A stretch of DNA of 64,000 bases from a virus, in the UHGV virus genome UHGV-0242533, one strand, 5' to 3'. The stretch's first letter is position 1. Every line of letters starts with the position of its first letter. This document shows positions 7,146 through 17,769 of the stretch, piece after piece. The position numbers and the translations under genes are program-made. The notes under the pieces were generated by a model. That model searched no databases. It saw only the letters and a list, made by a program, of their open reading frames with translations, and had not been told where the DNA came from.

Positions 7146-8687
7146 TTAGTAACTCTGATTCCATCTGCTTACGTTTGCCTCATACAAAGAAGCACTTCCG
7201 TAGCTAACGTCATGTTTAGAGCGACCACGATGTGTAACAGAGCACGCTGAATAGCGCATTGCGTCCATTAAGTCATCATGTTCTTTAATAATCTTACCAA
7301 CCTTACGGTGATACCTAGCTTTCTCTTCGAATAGCTTAGCGTTAGCGGCTGTGTTAAAGACCTTAAAGCGTCCACTCATCATTCTTTCTCGGATATCTGT
7401 GATTCCCGGTTCTACAAAGAAGTTCTTTTTACCATCCATTCCAATTTTGTTGTAGAAGGTCTCACTCTGTACATTAACTCCTGCATTCTTATAGAATTGA
7501 GCAACAGATGAGCCACTACCTTTCTCAATATTGTCCGCATCGTGCGGCAGGATGACAGGAATCCACTGACCACGACCATTAATAGCTGGAGCATGATACA
7601 CTGGAGTAAAGCCACCTTCTTTATATGAGTCGTAAACATAGATAGTATCCGTGTTTGCATCGTAAGCTGTCCAAACAGCAGCAGTTGGGTGATCAATACC
7701 AATATCAATTGCACAGACACGTTTCCACGTATCAGGAATTTCGAATGGTTCACATTTAATTGTGTCATCCGATACATCATAAATCAAACCACTTCCTAAC
7801 AATGGCATACCTTTTGAACGCATTTCTAATTGCCACGCTGGAATACCTTCAGTCATATCTTTTATATCTTGGTCAGTGATATGTCCACCTAGGTCTGCAT
7901 GAGCATCCCACCAAGAAGCATTCTGGAAATATAGAGAACCTGTGTTCTCATCCCCTTCACCTTTCATAAATTTATCTACCAGTTCAGTTAAACCGTTCTC
8001 TGGTGTAGCCGTAATTGTAACTAGACCTTTAGTTGTGAGTGTACGTGTGACACACTGTGCGAATATAGCCATAGACTCGTATGGATCTTCTTCGTCTAAC
8101 CAAATGTAGTCAACTGTTGCACCCATCAATGTGTGTTCACCCTGTTGGGTTGAACGGAATTCTAATGTACTTAAACCGTCAAACTCTCCTCTTTCATTTT
8201 GATGTTTGATTTGTACGATTTGAAGTTTGTTACCATCTCGTTCTATCGTGTCAATGACGATAGCATCACGAGGAATGACACCTGTCCCTAATAAATTTGT
8301 ATCCTTTCCGATAGGTGTACCAAACAATTCCTTTTGCAATACTTTCCTTGTGGAATCCCCTGTAATACCAACTGCCCATGCTAAGATAGGTCTTTTAAAT
8401 TTATATCCTGTCCACCAAGTTGGGTAGCGACCTGTGACATGACAAGCAAACTCGTATGCCTCGCTATAAGATTTACCAACACGGTTCGCTGCACACAAGA
8501 ATCTAAAGCGATGCTTCAATCCTGCTGCATAAAATTTCTTTTGGAAGTCATACGCCTTGAAAGACAAAATCCTATTATACTTCCTCCATTGGTCACGCTC
8601 TTTCAACATATTCAATAGTGCTTTCTTTTCATCTACACTAAGGTTGTTACCAGTTAGAGCTTCATAAATTTGTTTATCTAATGACAT
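7146..8687 (-). CDS. Terminase large subunit (513 aa)
   Basis: N-terminal P-loop-like segment (AANRVGKS) and C-terminal acidic nuclease-like segment; size and position. Confidence 0.75.
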   Translation of the reverse strand: MSLDKQIYEALTGNNLSVDEKKALLNMLKERDQWRKYNRILSFKAYDFQKKFYAAGLKHRFRFLCAANRVGKSYSEAYEFACHVTGRYPTWWTGYKFKRPILAWAVGITGDSTRKVLQKELFGTPIGKDTNLLGTGVIPRDAIVIDTIERDGNKLQIVQIKHQNERGEFDGLSTLEFRSTQQGEHTLMGATVDYIWLDEEDPYESMAIFAQCVTRTLTTKGLVTITATPENGLTELVDKFMKGEGDENTGSLYFQNASWWDAHADLGGHITDQDIKDMTEGIPAWQLEMRSKGMPLLGSGLIYDVSDDTIKCEPFEIPDTWKRVCAIDIGIDHPTAAVWTAYDANTDTIYVYDSYKEGGFTPVYHAPAINGRGQWIPVILPHDADNIEKGSGSSVAQFYKNAGVNVQSETFYNKIGMDGKKNFFVEPGITDIRERMMSGRFKVFNTAANAKLFEEKARYHRKVGKIIKEHDDLMDAMRYSACSVTHRGRSKHDVSYGSASLYEANVSRWNQSY

Positions 8688-8756: not shown

Positions 8757-9230
8757 TTAACTCTCGTCCGCTTCCTCCCCCTTTTCAGCGTCCTCAGAGT
8801 TGTCTTCTTCTGGAGGCATAACGTCAACACCAAGTGCTCCAGTCAAGAAGTCCTTGATTTGTGCATTCAATGATTCTTCGTTGATTACATTCTCTTCCTC
8901 AATCTTAACTTCAACAGAGGCCGCCTTAGGATATACCAGATCTGCAACTTTTGATGCAGCCTTGAATCTAAGATCAGGTGGAATATTAGGATCTTCGTAA
9001 ATTTGAATTAACACTTCATCAGGAGACAAATGACTTGCAGCAACACGGTCCAACATTAATTGTGTCAGTTTACCTCTACTACCTTTGGGTCGTCCGAATT
9101 TATTTCCCTTTTGAAACTTCCCATTGCTTGGGTTCATACCACGGCTTTCAAGTTCTTCCGTTACTCCGGGTAATCTTCCTGTAACCTCAGCTACCTGTGC
9201 AGGCGTGAGTTCTCCGTTTTCTCCAAACAT
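8757..9230 (-). CDS. Putative terminase small subunit (157 aa)
   Basis: Small basic/acidic protein directly upstream of the large terminase gene. Confidence 0.45.
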   Translation of the reverse strand: MFGENGELTPAQVAEVTGRLPGVTEELESRGMNPSNGKFQKGNKFGRPKGSRGKLTQLMLDRVAASHLSPDEVLIQIYEDPNIPPDLRFKAASKVADLVYPKAASVEVKIEEENVINEESLNAQIKDFLTGALGVDVMPPEEDNSEDAEKGEEADES

Positions 9231-9286
9231 TTTATACTCCTTCTACATTATCAACAACACAAAAAGCCTCCCAACGGAGGCAAATA

Positions 9287-9982
9287 TTACTTACAATCAC
9301 CAACGGACAGGTTAAACATCTTACCTAGAGCAATCGTCTCACCTTCCCACGGAAGTTCTGCACCCTTCTCTTCCTCTAAAAGAATAGAGCCGTCGACCAA
9401 AAATTTTTCGTAGTCTCGCAGTGCGTCGTCTACTAACTCACTCTTGTGAATCCACGTAATTGTTTCTGTACCATCCTCTTCGATTCGAACATCACGATGC
9501 CATTCATCTTTGGAGGTAATGTAATCATGGAGCATTTCATATTCAGCTTCTTCAATCATCTCAATCATTGCACGAGCATAGTCAGGGAGGTGATCATGTT
9601 TAGTAGATTCGTATTCAACTACTTCCAGAGTAGAAGGCTTAGCCCGTGCAACTTCTTCAAGTACTTTTGATCGATCTTTGTAGTAGTTCTCATATTTATC
9701 ACCAATAGTACCGACTTGAAGTCCACGGTATTGTTCTACTAAACTCATCATATCTTTCTTCTCCGTAATAGTTGGTTTAAGAATACTTCCACTATATAAA
9801 TCTTGTACAGCCAGTCCTGAAACATTTCCCATAGTTTCTAAATGTTGCAAGCTACAACCAGAACGACACAGCTGTGAATTGTAGTCAACCATGTCCATTG
9901 CTTTGATGTGGAAAGGAGAACCAGAAGGGAAACTACCTCCATAAACACCTTCCATGTTAACTGCGATTATTTTATTATTCAT
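9287..9982 (-). CDS. Hypothetical protein (231 aa)
   Basis: ORF track; operon context. Confidence 0.5.
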   Translation of the reverse strand: MNNKIIAVNMEGVYGGSFPSGSPFHIKAMDMVDYNSQLCRSGCSLQHLETMGNVSGLAVQDLYSGSILKPTITEKKDMMSLVEQYRGLQVGTIGDKYENYYKDRSKVLEEVARAKPSTLEVVEYESTKHDHLPDYARAMIEMIEEAEYEMLHDYITSKDEWHRDVRIEEDGTETITWIHKSELVDDALRDYEKFLVDGSILLEEEKGAELPWEGETIALGKMFNLSVGDCK

Positions 9983-10229
9983 TTGTATCTCCCTTGCTGT
10001 AATCTTTGTATGTTTCTACTTTGTAAGTGCGGAATGCTCTGAAGAAGAGCCAACCTAAGCTACTCACATCAATTGTGATATCGAAATCTGTATCATCATC
10101 TAAATCAACAAGACGACCTAAGCATGTAGCTTCCATCCCTTCTTCAGAGTCACTGTTGACTACGAAAGCGTATGTCTCAGTTCTGAACCGAGGCACCAAC
10201 TCTGATAAAAAGTCTAATACTAAATTCAT
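9975..10229 (-). CDS. Hypothetical protein (84 aa)
   Basis: ORF track; first gene of the minus-strand operon. Confidence 0.4.
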   Translation of the reverse strand: MNLVLDFLSELVPRFRTETYAFVVNSDSEEGMEATCLGRLVDLDDDTDFDITIDVSSLGWLFFRAFRTYKVETYKDYSKGDTNE

Positions 10230-10248
10230 AATTCTTCTCCTCTGAATA

Positions 10249-10392
10249 AAAGTATAAAGGGCACATCATAAGATCAACCCGTAAAGGCCACGTCATACCA
10301 ACAACCCGTGTACGCTGAAGTAAAGGGCATGTCATAAAGGGGACTTCATGTTAAGGCACCCTCACATTAAGGCCATGTCATTAGTCATACTT
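10249..10392. repeat. Array of about six degenerate direct repeats (AAAGGSCAYRTCAT-like)
   Basis: Read directly from the sequence: aaagggcacatcat, aaaggccacgtcat, aaagggcatgtcat, gggacttcatgt, aaggcaccctcacatt, aaggccatgtcat. Confidence 0.5.
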
Positions 10393-10769
10393 GATACACC
10401 TTGCTATAGAGAAGCAGATGAATAAACAGAAGACTATTACTAACCAGAATATCCATTCCATTAAGGTCTGTCCATCCATGTGCTGTGTTTAAGCTTACCA
10501 CATTTACTACATCTCCAAGTGGACTTATAAAGGGTGTGAACTCTTTCATCCCCGTAAGCTTTGTGTATCCGATAGTACTCATGATCACATTTGAATTGCT
10601 TAATGATTAACTTAATTTTCCACATAAATTCTCTTTCAACCTTATATATAAGAGTTTAAAATTCTGATTTGACCGAATGGGGCTAGCCGCTCGCCGCGCG
10701 TTTCCTAAAAAGGGGGAGTCCTCATTTAAAAAAGGGTTATTGGCAATGCCTTTACCTTCCCTTTACATG

Positions 10770-11340
10770 TTCCACCTTTCCCCGTGCCTACTCCCCGTAG
10801 TTATTCCCCCGTGTATCCACACCACATAAATGGTGGGGCATACTTTTATGCCTCTGTATACTACCCAATACATTACCTACCCGTTTATTTAGTTCCCCTT
10901 TAAAGAGTGGATGAGAGGCCAGCACTGTATAAAGGTCTGTATAATGATTAGATTAAGGCACTATGAATAAGCTAATAACACCCCCTAGTTACTACCCCAT
11001 TCCCCCCATAGTTTGATTGTAAATAGTTTCAATAGTTGTTATTATGAGTGCAATATATGATGGGTGCATGGAATGCACAGCTACGAAGTAGCGTTGTATG
11101 TATGTATTAATTAAGTGGAAAGATTGATACTTTCTTTTATGTTCTTTCTTTTTCAGCGTACCTGAGCGTAAGCGAAGGGTGAGTACGTAGTACGAACGGT
11201 CTTTGATGTTTGAGTAGATGATTTTGGTTAAGTGGTATATTACTACCGCACTATCTGGCTATCCTTCCCCGTGGTCTGTTCTGCGGTTGTGTGTTCCCCG
11301 TCCTATATAGATAGTAGAATTAATTCACCCGTGGTCTTGC
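10770..11340. repeat. ORF-poor region with recurring C-rich motif TTCCCCGTG(G)
   Basis: About six copies (tttccccgtgcc, actccccgtag, ttcccccgtg, ccttccccgtggtc, gttccccgtcc, tcacccgtggtc) between the divergent late and early blocks. Confidence 0.4.
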
Positions 11341-11559
11341 TTTCCTTATTAGGTAGTGGTAAATTGAATCTATCGATTGAGTGGTTGGAGTAGTAGAAAT
11401 GATTATCTTAGTAATGTTGGTGCTGGCTGTAGCGTTTCCTTTGCTTGCTCTGATTGTTTGTGAAGTGGTTGAGTTATTCACTGATAAAGGGTTAGAAGTT
11501 GTTGATAAACCAAGCAAATTTGATGGCGTGAAATTTAGTAAAAAAGTTGAAATTAGTTG

Positions 11560-11588
11560 TTGACATGTTAGGTAATAAGAAGTATAGT
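11560..11588 (+). promoter_or_regulatory. Sigma70-like early promoter
   Basis: TTGACA, 17 nt spacer, TATAGT. Confidence 0.5.
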
Positions 11589-11629
11589 TATCTCATTGAA
11601 ACGAAGTATACTAACTAAAGGGGTCAATC

Positions 11630-12106
11630 ATGAATAAGGCAAACTTTGTAATCGGTGCTCTGGTATTAACCTTCGGTAGTATGGCTATCGCTGACAAGAT
11701 TGCTAGCGCTCCAGTTGCTCAAGCTGCTGTAGTTATGACTGATGCTGCTGATACATTCGTTAGCAACGCTCCTAAAGGTTGGATGGTTTGTAAAGGATTG
11801 GATTCAGATAACGTCACTACGTTGATGAAAGTTAAATTATCTAACGTAACCAATCGTGGTATGATTTTGTCTACTCGTACACTTGACAATCAGAACAATG
11901 AGGATATTCTTCTTTCCCGTAAAGACAATGACCCTGAGTTGATTACCTTTGGCGATGTGCAGACTATCAAAGGTTCTAAAGTTGTGACTAATCTTGTAAC
12001 GTATGGTACAATGCAAGAAACCATGTTAGCCACTTCCGTTTATGCTGCTGATAACAGTATTTGGACGTTCCGCTTTCAGATGGGTGATTGTGTTAAAGCA
12101 AAATAG
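11630..12106 (+). CDS. Secreted protein with signal peptide (158 aa)
   Basis: N-terminal MNKANFVIGALVLTFGSMAIA signal-like segment; RBS aaagggg. Confidence 0.55.
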   Translation: MNKANFVIGALVLTFGSMAIADKIASAPVAQAAVVMTDAADTFVSNAPKGWMVCKGLDSDNVTTLMKVKLSNVTNRGMILSTRTLDNQNNEDILLSRKDNDPELITFGDVQTIKGSKVVTNLVTYGTMQETMLATSVYAADNSIWTFRFQMGDCVKAK

Positions 12107-16966: not shown

Positions 16967-17020
16967 AGCCGCCTTTGAGCGGCTTTTTGCGTTACCGCCT
17001 CCTTAATTGGAGGCTTTTTT
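16967..17020 (+). terminator. Two tandem intrinsic terminators
   Basis: agccgc-loop-gcggct+TTTTT and gcctcc-loop-ggaggc+TTTTTT. Confidence 0.65.
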
Positions 17021-17046
17021 GTATCTATTATATAGGAAACCATGAA

Positions 17047-17769
17047 ATGAAAGCATTTGCATTGTCAGCTATTCTAGTTTTATCTGCCATTAGTGCCCCA
17101 TCCTTTGCTCATTCTGACAAATGCTCACACTCTAAACAGTGTGAAGTCCAGCAGGGGCCGAAAGGTGATAAAGGAGAACAGGGTATTCAAGGCGAACAAG
17201 GTCCGAAAGGTGACAAGGGTGATCGCGGAGAGCAGGGCTTAAAAGGTGATACTGGATCGGCTGGCATCAATGGTACTAATGGCATTGATGGTAAAGATGG
17301 CATTGATGGTAAAGATGGCGCTCAAGGTGAAAAAGGTGATTCTGGTGCAGATGGTAAGAAAGGCGAAACTGGCCTAACTGGTGCAGCAGGTTTGAATGGC
17401 GTTGACGGATTAAATGGCAAAAATGGTAAAGATGCAGATATGTCTGCCGTTAATGCTAACGCCAAATCTATCAAAGCTCTGGAACAATCCACCAACAAAC
17501 GTTTTGCTTCTTTGCAAAAACAAGTAGACCGTAACCGTGATCATGCCTCTGCTGGTATTTCTGGCGTGGCTGCAATGGCTAACATCCCGCAAGTAAGTCA
17601 AGGATCTGCTTTCTCTGTTGGTGCTGGGGTAGGTGCTTACGATGGTGAATCTGCTCTTGCTATTGGTGTTAGTGCTCGTTTCAATGAAAACGTAGTAACT
17701 AAAGCATCAGTGGCAATGACTTCAGAGAGTGACGCTGTTCTGGGCGCTGGTGTAAGTTACGAGTGGTAA
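17047..17769 (+). CDS. Collagen-like protein with signal peptide and YadA-like C-terminal anchor
   Basis: Start taken at internal ATG with RBS. Signal MKAFALSAILVLSAISAPSFA; long GXX collagen-like repeat run; C-terminus SAGISGVAAMANIPQV...SALAIGVS...VTKASVAMT...GAGVSYEW resembles the trimeric-autotransporter anchor. Confidence 0.6.
   Translation: MKAFALSAILVLSAISAPSFAHSDKCSHSKQCEVQQGPKGDKGEQGIQGEQGPKGDKGDRGEQGLKGDTGSAGINGTNGIDGKDGIDGKDGAQGEKGDSGADGKKGETGLTGAAGLNGVDGLNGKNGKDADMSAVNANAKSIKALEQSTNKRFASLQKQVDRNRDHASAGISGVAAMANIPQVSQGSAFSVGAGVGAYDGESALAIGVSARFNENVVTKASVAMTSESDAVLGAGVSYEW

Follow-up and report, generated by a model that had tools for sequence, protein, structure and literature searches.

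A stretch of 64,000 nucleotides of viral DNA, UHGV virus genome UHGV-0242533 (referred to as a whole as the window), contains an array of short direct repeats at positions 10249-10392, for which an earlier note, made from the sequence alone, had proposed three possible roles: a replication origin, a packaging recognition site or clustered operators. When window positions 9000-12000 were used as a megablast query, all 98 phage records matched were phiEco32-like coliphages (Kuravirus, Gordonclarkvirinae), and judged by this similarity the window is a phiEco32-like Kuravirus genome. Its minus strand corresponds to the plus strand of phiEco32, position 1 of which aligns at about window position 10920. 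Late genes run leftward on the minus strand and early genes rightward on the plus strand, the latter behind an early promoter (TTGACA-17-TATAGT) at 11560-11588. In the late-gene direction, the order of elements is the direct terminal repeat (DTR), a block with the sequence CGGTCAAATCAGAATTTTAAACTCTTATATATAAGG, an open reading frame (ORF) named gp0.1 here, the array, the homologues of phi32_4 and phi32_5 (gp4 and gp5), a terminator, the late promoter element P6, the homologue of phi32_6, the large terminase and the portal. The analysis described below indicates that the array is a strand-specific cluster of 15-bp bipartite sites, the signature of a putative phage-encoded, sequence-specific DNA-binding protein, and points to the small terminase (TerS) as the favoured binder.

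Read on the minus strand, the array is made up of six matches to the 15-mer RTGR-N4-SCCTTWA, all of them on one strand and within 127 bp (10255-10381). Together with a degenerate seventh copy and one spacer, they are:

10461-10475, minus strand: copy 0, degenerate, ATGGACAGACCTTAA; last codons and stop of the 54-aa ORF gp0.1
10367-10381, minus strand: copy 1, the first in the late-gene direction, ATGACATGGCCTTAA (plus strand TTAAGGCCATGTCAT)
10351-10365, minus strand: copy 2, GTGAGGGTGCCTTAA (plus strand TTAAGGCACCCTCAC)
10335-10349, minus strand: copy 3, ATGAAGTCCCCTTTA (plus strand TAAAGGGGACTTCAT)
10321-10335, minus strand: copy 4, ATGACATGCCCTTTA (plus strand TAAAGGGCATGTCAT), with one base common with copy 3
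10297-10320, minus strand: spacer between copies 4 and 5, with companion boxes CTTCAGCG and ACGGGT
10282-10296, minus strand: copy 5, ATGACGTGGCCTTTA (plus strand TAAAGGCCACGTCAT)
10255-10269, minus strand: copy 6, ATGATGTGCCCTTTA (plus strand TAAAGGGCACATCAT), 40 nt before the ATG of the phi32_4 homologue

No further match to the motif exists on either strand of the window, and 200 shuffles gave a mean of 0.475 matches and a maximum of 3. The consensus used in the earlier note, with up to two mismatches, recovered five array copies and nothing elsewhere in the window, and the presence of seven same-strand 7-bp cores within 232 bp has a Poisson probability of about 1e-12, given the window-wide density of the core. 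The six copies described before are thus present, and they do lie between two minus-strand ORFs. The spacing, which had been given as 17-30 nt, needs correction: start-to-start distances in the late-gene direction are 16, 16, 14, 39 and 27 nt (a range of 14-39 nt), with gaps of -1 to 24 nt. The terminal codons of gp0.1 double as a copy of the motif, and in most relatives the counterpart of copy 0 is a full match (ATGGATAGGCCTTAA). An insertion of about 78 bp occupies 10385-10460, from the gp0.1 stop to the first full copy; it is common to WFI101126, SGF2, IMEP8, 4E8 and others (spacing 94), and is missing from phiEco32, Paul and SU7.

Conservation of the array was analyzed in 27 distinct loci from Kuravirus, Suseptimavirus and Nieuwekanaalvirus. 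Each of them holds four to seven forward CCTTWA cores from the gp0.1 stop to the gp4 start, and a single inverted core was found in the whole set, so that the comparison with related phages suggested in the earlier note shows the repeats to be conserved (27/27 loci). An information profile was built from 162 copies (100 distinct 24-mers), scoring the columns outside the core used for site selection. Positions -9 to -6 (A, T, G, R) carry 0.94, 1.42, 1.54 and 0.79 bits, and the S at -1 carries 0.98 bits, with 0.2-0.4 bits in the 4-nt spacer. Since informative, unselected columns flank a weak spacer, the site is bipartite, with halves about one helical turn apart. Copy number differs between phages, as do the spacings (14/16, 25-27, 37-58, 94 and 182 nt); in phiEco32 the array is split by 182 bp. 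The last copy is located exactly 40 nt before the gp4 ATG in many Kuraviruses, and in SGF2, rybdy3, PE006, MN05 and NJ01 the array is shifted by about 132 bp, the offset from gp4 going from -40 to about -172. Such variation in copy number and spacing is incompatible with a conserved reading frame or a rigid promoter architecture. In the most distant genera (SU7, NC-B, 101114UKE3) the blastn match to the window extends across the array only. Identity of the array to other genera is 76-90%, versus 66-77% for the flanking genes, a difference somewhat inflated by the repeats in such alignments. TerS is 92-99% identical across the three genera, in which the motif is invariant, with 57-68% for gp0.1 and gp4. 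On this comparative evidence, the array is conserved under selection.

These data bear on the idea that the array has no function at all and results from chance clustering, a recent local duplication or unrecognised coding sequence. The phiEco32 annotation does run ORFs phi32_1 to phi32_3 across it, and in locus L056 (TerS 76%, see below) five copies (2136-2262) lie in frame in the 5' part of a called 269-aa gp5-like ORF, where they encode P-L/P-F repeats. However, the array is kept across three genera and, in modified form, across families, its information pattern is bipartite, the indels are not multiples of three and the overlapping ORFs are not conserved, so that this explanation is already effectively refuted. 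A second cluster of three copies exists in L056 (2886-2946), just upstream of terS, so that two arrays flank one gene.

The second property of the array is its position close to a genome end. Blunt direct terminal repeats of 192-193 bp have been described for phiEco32, SU10, Paul and YF01 (PMC4281155; PMC9965538; Paul annotation), and the corresponding element was located in the window:

10685-10920, no strand assigned: DTR, as a single collapsed copy, placed by homology to the 193-bp DTR of phiEco32; left genome end at about 10920

The array lies about 300-430 bp from the inner boundary of the left DTR, between gp0.1 and phi32_4. The DTR holds a clade-wide block, GAGGACTCCCCCTTTTTAGGAAACGCGCG. 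Of 25 loci checked, 13 allowed this block to be placed, and in those 13 the array begins 221-353 bp past it. Two to three inverted SCCTTWA cores are present in the DTR (10748, 10759 and 10896, plus strand), facing the array, along with four to six same-strand copies of A[CT]GGG[GT] (ACGGGK), none of them reversed; two more of these are found in the array spacers, and repeats of this type reach about 11 copies in the metagenomic relative L060 (1450-1870). The earlier note had named a lack of conservation, with no terminus nearby, as the outcome that would count against it; what was found is an array kept in every Gordonclarkvirinae relative examined and, in those relatives with a mapped terminus, an end a few hundred bp away. 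With respect to phiEco32, the DTR of the window shows an insertion of about 43 bp (~10810-10860) with a small inverted repeat and the DnaA-box-like TGTGGATAC, and would be about 236 bp long, assuming the same boundaries as in phiEco32. Block CGGTCAAATCAGAATTTTAAACTCTTATATATAAGG (10590-10685, minus strand), located directly inside the DTR boundary, hardly varies from Kuravirus to L058 and L039; it may serve as a promoter for the left-end unit (a promoter is annotated there in 4E8) or belong to an end-cleavage signal.

TerS, here the candidate small terminase encoded by the phi32_6 homologue, has homologues in 135 phage records, among them Salmonella 7-11, Cronobacter GAP52, Proteus Privateer, and phages of Aeromonas and Vibrio. 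Those of gp0.1 and gp4 were found in the Escherichia/Shigella group only. Among 13 more distant TerS-bearing loci examined, direct-repeat arrays were present between a DTR-type block and terS in 12 (7-11, GAP52, Privateer, ECO319P1, CsaP_009, LAh_8, L039, L044, L045, L056, L057 and L060). The arrays, picked up by unbiased repeat finding, are same-strand and upstream of terS. Their units are listed here with the identity of each TerS to the window protein:

L059, TerS 87%: reduced array, 3-4 degenerate copies
L056, TerS 76%: SCCTTTA kept
L057, TerS 71%: SCCTTTA kept
L039, TerS 67%: AAGAYAGCCATTCA, 4 tandem copies
L058, TerS 62%: no clear array
LAh_8, TerS 52%: TATGA-N4-GSCATG
7-11, TerS 46-52%: ATGA-N4-SCCATCWA, 5 copies
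GAP52 and ECO319P1, TerS 46-52%: ATGACCTCSCATC
Privateer and CsaP_009, TerS 46-52%: same type as the GAP52/7-11 group, 4-5 copies
L060, TerS 50%: ATGACCTYCCACGR
L044, TerS 48%: ATCACCTCCCATCAA
L045, TerS 43%: ATGACYNTCCCTGAA

The left half of the site, ATGA(C), is constant, and the right half is lineage-specific: CCTTTA where TerS identity is at least 71%, CCATTCA at 67%, CCATCWA at 46-52%, GCATG in LAh_8, CCACGR at 50% and CCCTGAA at 43%. Boxes of the type T(T/A)TCAG(T/C/A)G accompany the array units in all lineages examined, and a GAGGA(C/T)...CCCCCTTTT block, homologous to the inner Kuravirus DTR, precedes the outgroup arrays. The order DTR block, array, terS is constant across lineages, with accessory genes inserted at differing points: in Gordonclarkvirinae gp0.1 is found before the array and gp4-gp5 after it, and in L039, L056 and L057 a gp5-like gene is found before it. 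Since the array persists without gp0.1 and gp4, it tracks the terminase module rather than its immediate neighbours. The Escherichia/Shigella phage ECO319P1 carries a site of the GAP52 type, which indicates that the motif follows the phage lineage and not the host, and argues for a phage-encoded binder.

Conservation of the position beside the DTR across families, and the dense packing of the terminal 700 bp with strand-specific short repeats (ACGGGK, inverted SCCTTWA cores, TCAGNG boxes), might also reflect some other role of the genome end, analogous to the short-repeat arrays beside the T7 terminal repetition, such as processing of the concatemer junction and DTR duplication, end protection, or a signal in DNA ejection or entry. 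We consider this improbable: neither a mechanism nor a binder can be named for it, and the lineage-specific right half argues instead for a phage protein of evolving specificity, the property by which TerS is defined.

The genes and signals around the array are the following:

10461-10625, minus strand: gp0.1, 54-aa basic Cys/His ORF (CxH...CxxC; MWKIKLIIKQFKCDHEYYRIHKAYGDERVHTLYKSTWRCSKCGKLKHSTWMDRP), in a frame different from that of the annotated phi32_1
9975-10229, minus strand: gp4, homologue of phi32_4, 84 aa, acidic, no family match
9287-9982, minus strand: gp5, homologue of phi32_5, 231 aa, acidic; 133-231 aa in relatives
9266-9281, minus strand: intrinsic-terminator hairpin closing a small left-end transcription unit; WFI101126, Paul and 4E8 have annotated terminators in the corresponding position
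9242-9250, minus strand: late promoter element P6 (gp36 sigma), TAATGTAGA, fitting the consensus tAATGTAtA
8757-9230, minus strand: homologue of phi32_6, candidate small terminase of the PaP3 type and proposed binder of the array, directly upstream of terL
7146-8687, minus strand: large terminase (Terminase_6N/6C)

Six gp36 promoters have been mapped, one of them upstream of gene 6, with the consensus tAATGTAtA (PMC8948821). The class consists of a single 9-bp element 6-8 bp upstream of the start site (genes 6, 13, 26, 40, 58 and 68). The array had been placed just upstream of the terminase genes, which does not hold, as phi32_4, phi32_5, the terminator at 9266-9281 and P6 intervene before the small-terminase gene. 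With P6 and the terminator between the array and terS, the proposed position at the head of the packaging operon does not apply to this phage. The array lies within a small, separate unit at the left end, or ahead of it; the description does suit distant relatives in which the array is directly upstream of terS. Searches in Pfam, NCBIfam and PHROG gave no function for the neighbours of the array. The gp0.1 ORF is conserved in 97 phage records (58-98% identity), and the annotated phi32_1 (L001 296-496), which is in another frame and runs into the array, looks miscalled, as do phi32_2 and phi32_3. The label 'ABC transporter' given to phi32_5 in RefSeq and PHROGs appears spurious, there being no Walker motif and no Pfam or NCBIfam match.

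A profile of six phi32_6 sequences matched the small terminases of PaP3 (6w7t, E=0.0026) and NV1 (7joq, E=0.0083), and the same HHM similarity to PaP3/NV1 TerS has been reported for the phi32_6-type protein in the YF01 paper (PMC9965538). The protein can be regarded as TerS-like, an assignment of modest strength based on these profiles. These phages must have a terminase site near the DTR and TerS reads such sites, which makes TerS the favoured binder. We therefore propose, as a tentative reading that falls a little short of an even chance, that the array is a pacB/cosB-like recognition site for TerS, possibly also autoregulatory. A TerS oligomer would bind the head-to-tail sites on concatemeric DNA and position the large terminase to cut at the DTR boundary, packaging then starting from the left end; the same complex may damp or modulate adjacent transcription, as in SPP1. 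The main early sigma-70 promoters are located at the opposite end, so that this end probably enters first and is packaged last, and packaging would start at the genome end beside the array. We infer TerS as the binder, as well as the direction of packaging and any role in cleavage. There are precedents in other phages: the TerS of T7, gp18, recognises PacB in concatemers (PMC9860248), and that of SPP1 represses its own synthesis, its binding sites pacL and pacR overlapping the late promoters of the gene that encodes it (PMC6316719). TerS can be a ring with successive helix-turn-helix (HTH) motifs (PMC7672466). The head-to-tail register of 14-16 bp would be compatible with the successive HTHs of a TerS ring, the DNA being wrapped around the ring or interdigitated with it.

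A bolder form of this proposal, which we see as possible rather than probable, is that the array represents the first pac signal to be defined in short-DTR podophages of the C3 morphotype (Gordonclarkvirinae, Grimontviridae and metagenomic relatives), written in a two-part code with an invariant ATGA half and a half that co-evolves with TerS.

Several observations weigh against recognition by TerS. The right half-site appears to change with each diverged TerS lineage, but these contrasts are phylogenetically non-independent, and any conserved phage protein would show a similar co-variation through shared ancestry. For a pac site, the array is far from the presumed cut: the distance, which varies with insertions, is about 300-430 bp in the window and reaches about 900 bp in the case of the terS-proximal cluster of L056 and L057, and DTR boundaries in the window and the outgroups were placed by homology. 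The DTR block, which hardly varies, may itself be a terminase site, in place of the array or in addition to it, and L058 has no clear array. The AF2 model of phi32_6 has a pLDDT of 68 and gave nothing significant against the PDB in Foldseek, with PaP3 TerS at rank 8 (E=2.4). Finally, 7-11, GAP52, L039, L056 and L057 have the array directly upstream of terS or of the late promoter, which fits a transcriptional role equally well; in most relatives outside Kuravirus its position is the one expected for an upstream regulator of the late promoter.

Such a role would make the array a set of operators or upstream activator sites for a phage transcription factor, or for TerS acting purely as a regulator, controlling the gp4-gp5 unit in Kuravirus and the late terS promoter in relatives. 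In its favour, the last units abut the GTAAtg-N16-aCTA late promoter in 7-11 and GAP52, only 60-190 bp separate the array from terS downstream of it in L039, L056 and L057, the last copy keeps its distance of exactly 40 nt to the gp4 ATG in many Kuraviruses, and SPP1 shows that sites of this kind can regulate. On the other hand, the Gordonclarkvirinae array is about 1 kb from P6, past two genes and a terminator, and yet fully conserved; the offset to gp4 jumps in several phages and a split of 182 bp is tolerated; and the array persists in phages without gp4 and gp5. No sigma-70 promoter was predicted in the array by a promoter scan, no gp36 element (tAATGTAtA) has been reported at gene 4 and no candidate regulator gene was identified. 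In addition, the sigma factors have diverged to 15% identity, with unrelated promoter consensus sequences, and the ATGA half has stayed constant. A purely regulatory array is in our opinion rather unlikely. Following the SPP1 precedent, a pac site beside a late promoter, as in 7-11 and GAP52, could serve both purposes.

The resemblance to iterons noted at the outset holds for the look of the array, which shares with those of lambda ori, P1, P4 or R6K-type origins the tandem direct repeats able to bind one protein many times; the hallmarks of an iteron origin were not found. An origin bound by a phage initiator would agree with direct repeats in a non-coding stretch at which the transcription and GC-skew switches coincide. 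GAP52 (L031 462-633) has three perfect DnaA boxes (ACTTATCCACAGG; 3 copies of TTATCCACA) and 7-11 (L030 907-963) three DnaA-like boxes (TGTATGGATAG/A), in both cases in the long stretch of non-coding DNA that separates the early promoters from terS; these boxes may mark an origin or a DnaA-related signal in Grimontviridae. AT-rich stretches separate the array halves in 7-11 and Privateer. In the window, however, the array and its spacers are not AT-rich, with no unwinding element of that kind, and no DnaA box TTATNCACA was found within 10 kb of them. The array units measure 15 bp and are irregularly spaced (14/16/27/39), unlike the helically phased iterons of 17-22 bp; no Rep-like initiator is encoded nearby, where the neighbours are acidic proteins and a 54-aa Zn-ribbon-like ORF; and the genes of the replisome, with a DnaB-type helicase and a family-A polymerase, are T7-like. 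The GC skew switches where transcription changes direction, and the subfamily shows no plasmid-like persistence. We consider an iteron origin very improbable. Of the three roles listed in the earlier note, the comparative evidence favours packaging over origin, and operators are still a rival.

Other candidates were tried and rejected. An RNA element found no support in Rfam (no match of the array at E <=1) or in folding, with a z-score of +0.76 and no unusual stability. The ATGACA sequence resembles a -35 element, but has no -10 partner that would make a sigma-70 promoter cluster. As for gp36 promoters or decoys, the resemblance of the units to the consensus goes no further than TAATGT, in two copies, nothing in tAATGTAtA corresponds to the GCCTTTA half, and the ATGA half is constant though phiEco32 and 7-11 have unrelated sigma factors and promoters. 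Sites of host factors (DnaA, PhoB/OmpR/ArcA/CpxR-type repeats, Chi) gave no match, and the motif follows the phage lineage and not the host; a search of 5,426 Escherichia coli genomes and PLSDB for satellites or plasmids that mimic the site was also negative. The gp0.1 protein, though basic and encoded next to the array, is missing from outgroups in which the array is kept. A partition cassette (centromere plus NTPase) was discarded as gp5 has no Walker motif or family match and Gordonclarkvirinae show no persistent state.

The kind of element proposed here, protein-binding repeats for TerS or another protein beside a phage terminus, is well known. In lambda, cosB holds the R3-R2-R1 sites for gpNu1 between cosN and the Nu1 gene, and packaging proceeds from the left end. 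The order of cut site, multiple sites of about 15-16 bp and terS plus terL at the left end would be the same here, the array being the predicted TerS sites. The lambda R sites are of mixed orientation and depend on bending by IHF, whereas five to seven head-to-tail sites are found here, with accessory genes inserted between elements and with DTRs in place of cohesive ends. Many short same-strand repeats occur in and beside the terminal repetition of T7, as in the array region. The pacB of T3 and T7 is at the opposite, right end and linked to a phage RNA polymerase (RNAP) promoter, while the array is beside the terminase-gene end and phiEco32-like phages have no phage RNAP. There is also no sequence similarity to the T7/T3 pac, and the terminase is of the PaP3/T4 type and not of the T7 type. 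All of them are short-DTR podophages that package from concatemers, and the recognition element, putative in the case of the array, is in both cases just outside the terminal repeat, apart from the cut sites, which in T7/T3 are the PacC sites at the terminal repeat, with TerS as its reader (PMC9860248 for T7; proposed here for the array). The SPP1 pac (pacL-pacC-pacR) offers TerS-bound repeated boxes at TerS's own late promoters and autoregulation, which reconciles the packaging and operator interpretations; it differs in belonging to a headful packager, in being cleaved inside pac, in its TerS family and in its unrelated sequence.

Outside the array region, the plus-strand ORF at 16975-17769, in the early region, has collagen triple-helix repeats and a YadA-like membrane-anchor domain (Pfam E 2e-19 and 4e-17). 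It resembles a trimeric autotransporter, which is odd among the early genes of a lytic phage.

In the literature searched, from which the primary phiEco32 papers (Savalia 2008; Pavlova 2012) fell outside, no description of a pac site, iterons or these repeats in phiEco32-like phages was found, nor of a packaging signal or other cis-acting terminal element for Kuraviruses. The sites of the array are half constant and half variable in design. Coliphages isolated for therapy are widely Kuraviruses, and phiEco32 serves as a model for transcription. If the array is a terminase site, it would provide a sequence-defined substrate for TerS of the PaP3 type and a handle for transducing particles or packaging-deficient, contained phages, as done for T7, and would explain the misannotation of the region as small ORFs (phi32_1 to phi32_3). 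If it is instead a regulator array, it would mark a DNA-binding factor conserved across two phage families. Should the two-part code be true, packaging specificity in these phages would be predictable and re-programmable, and the array would be a natural substrate on which to set competing models of TerS-DNA recognition against each other.

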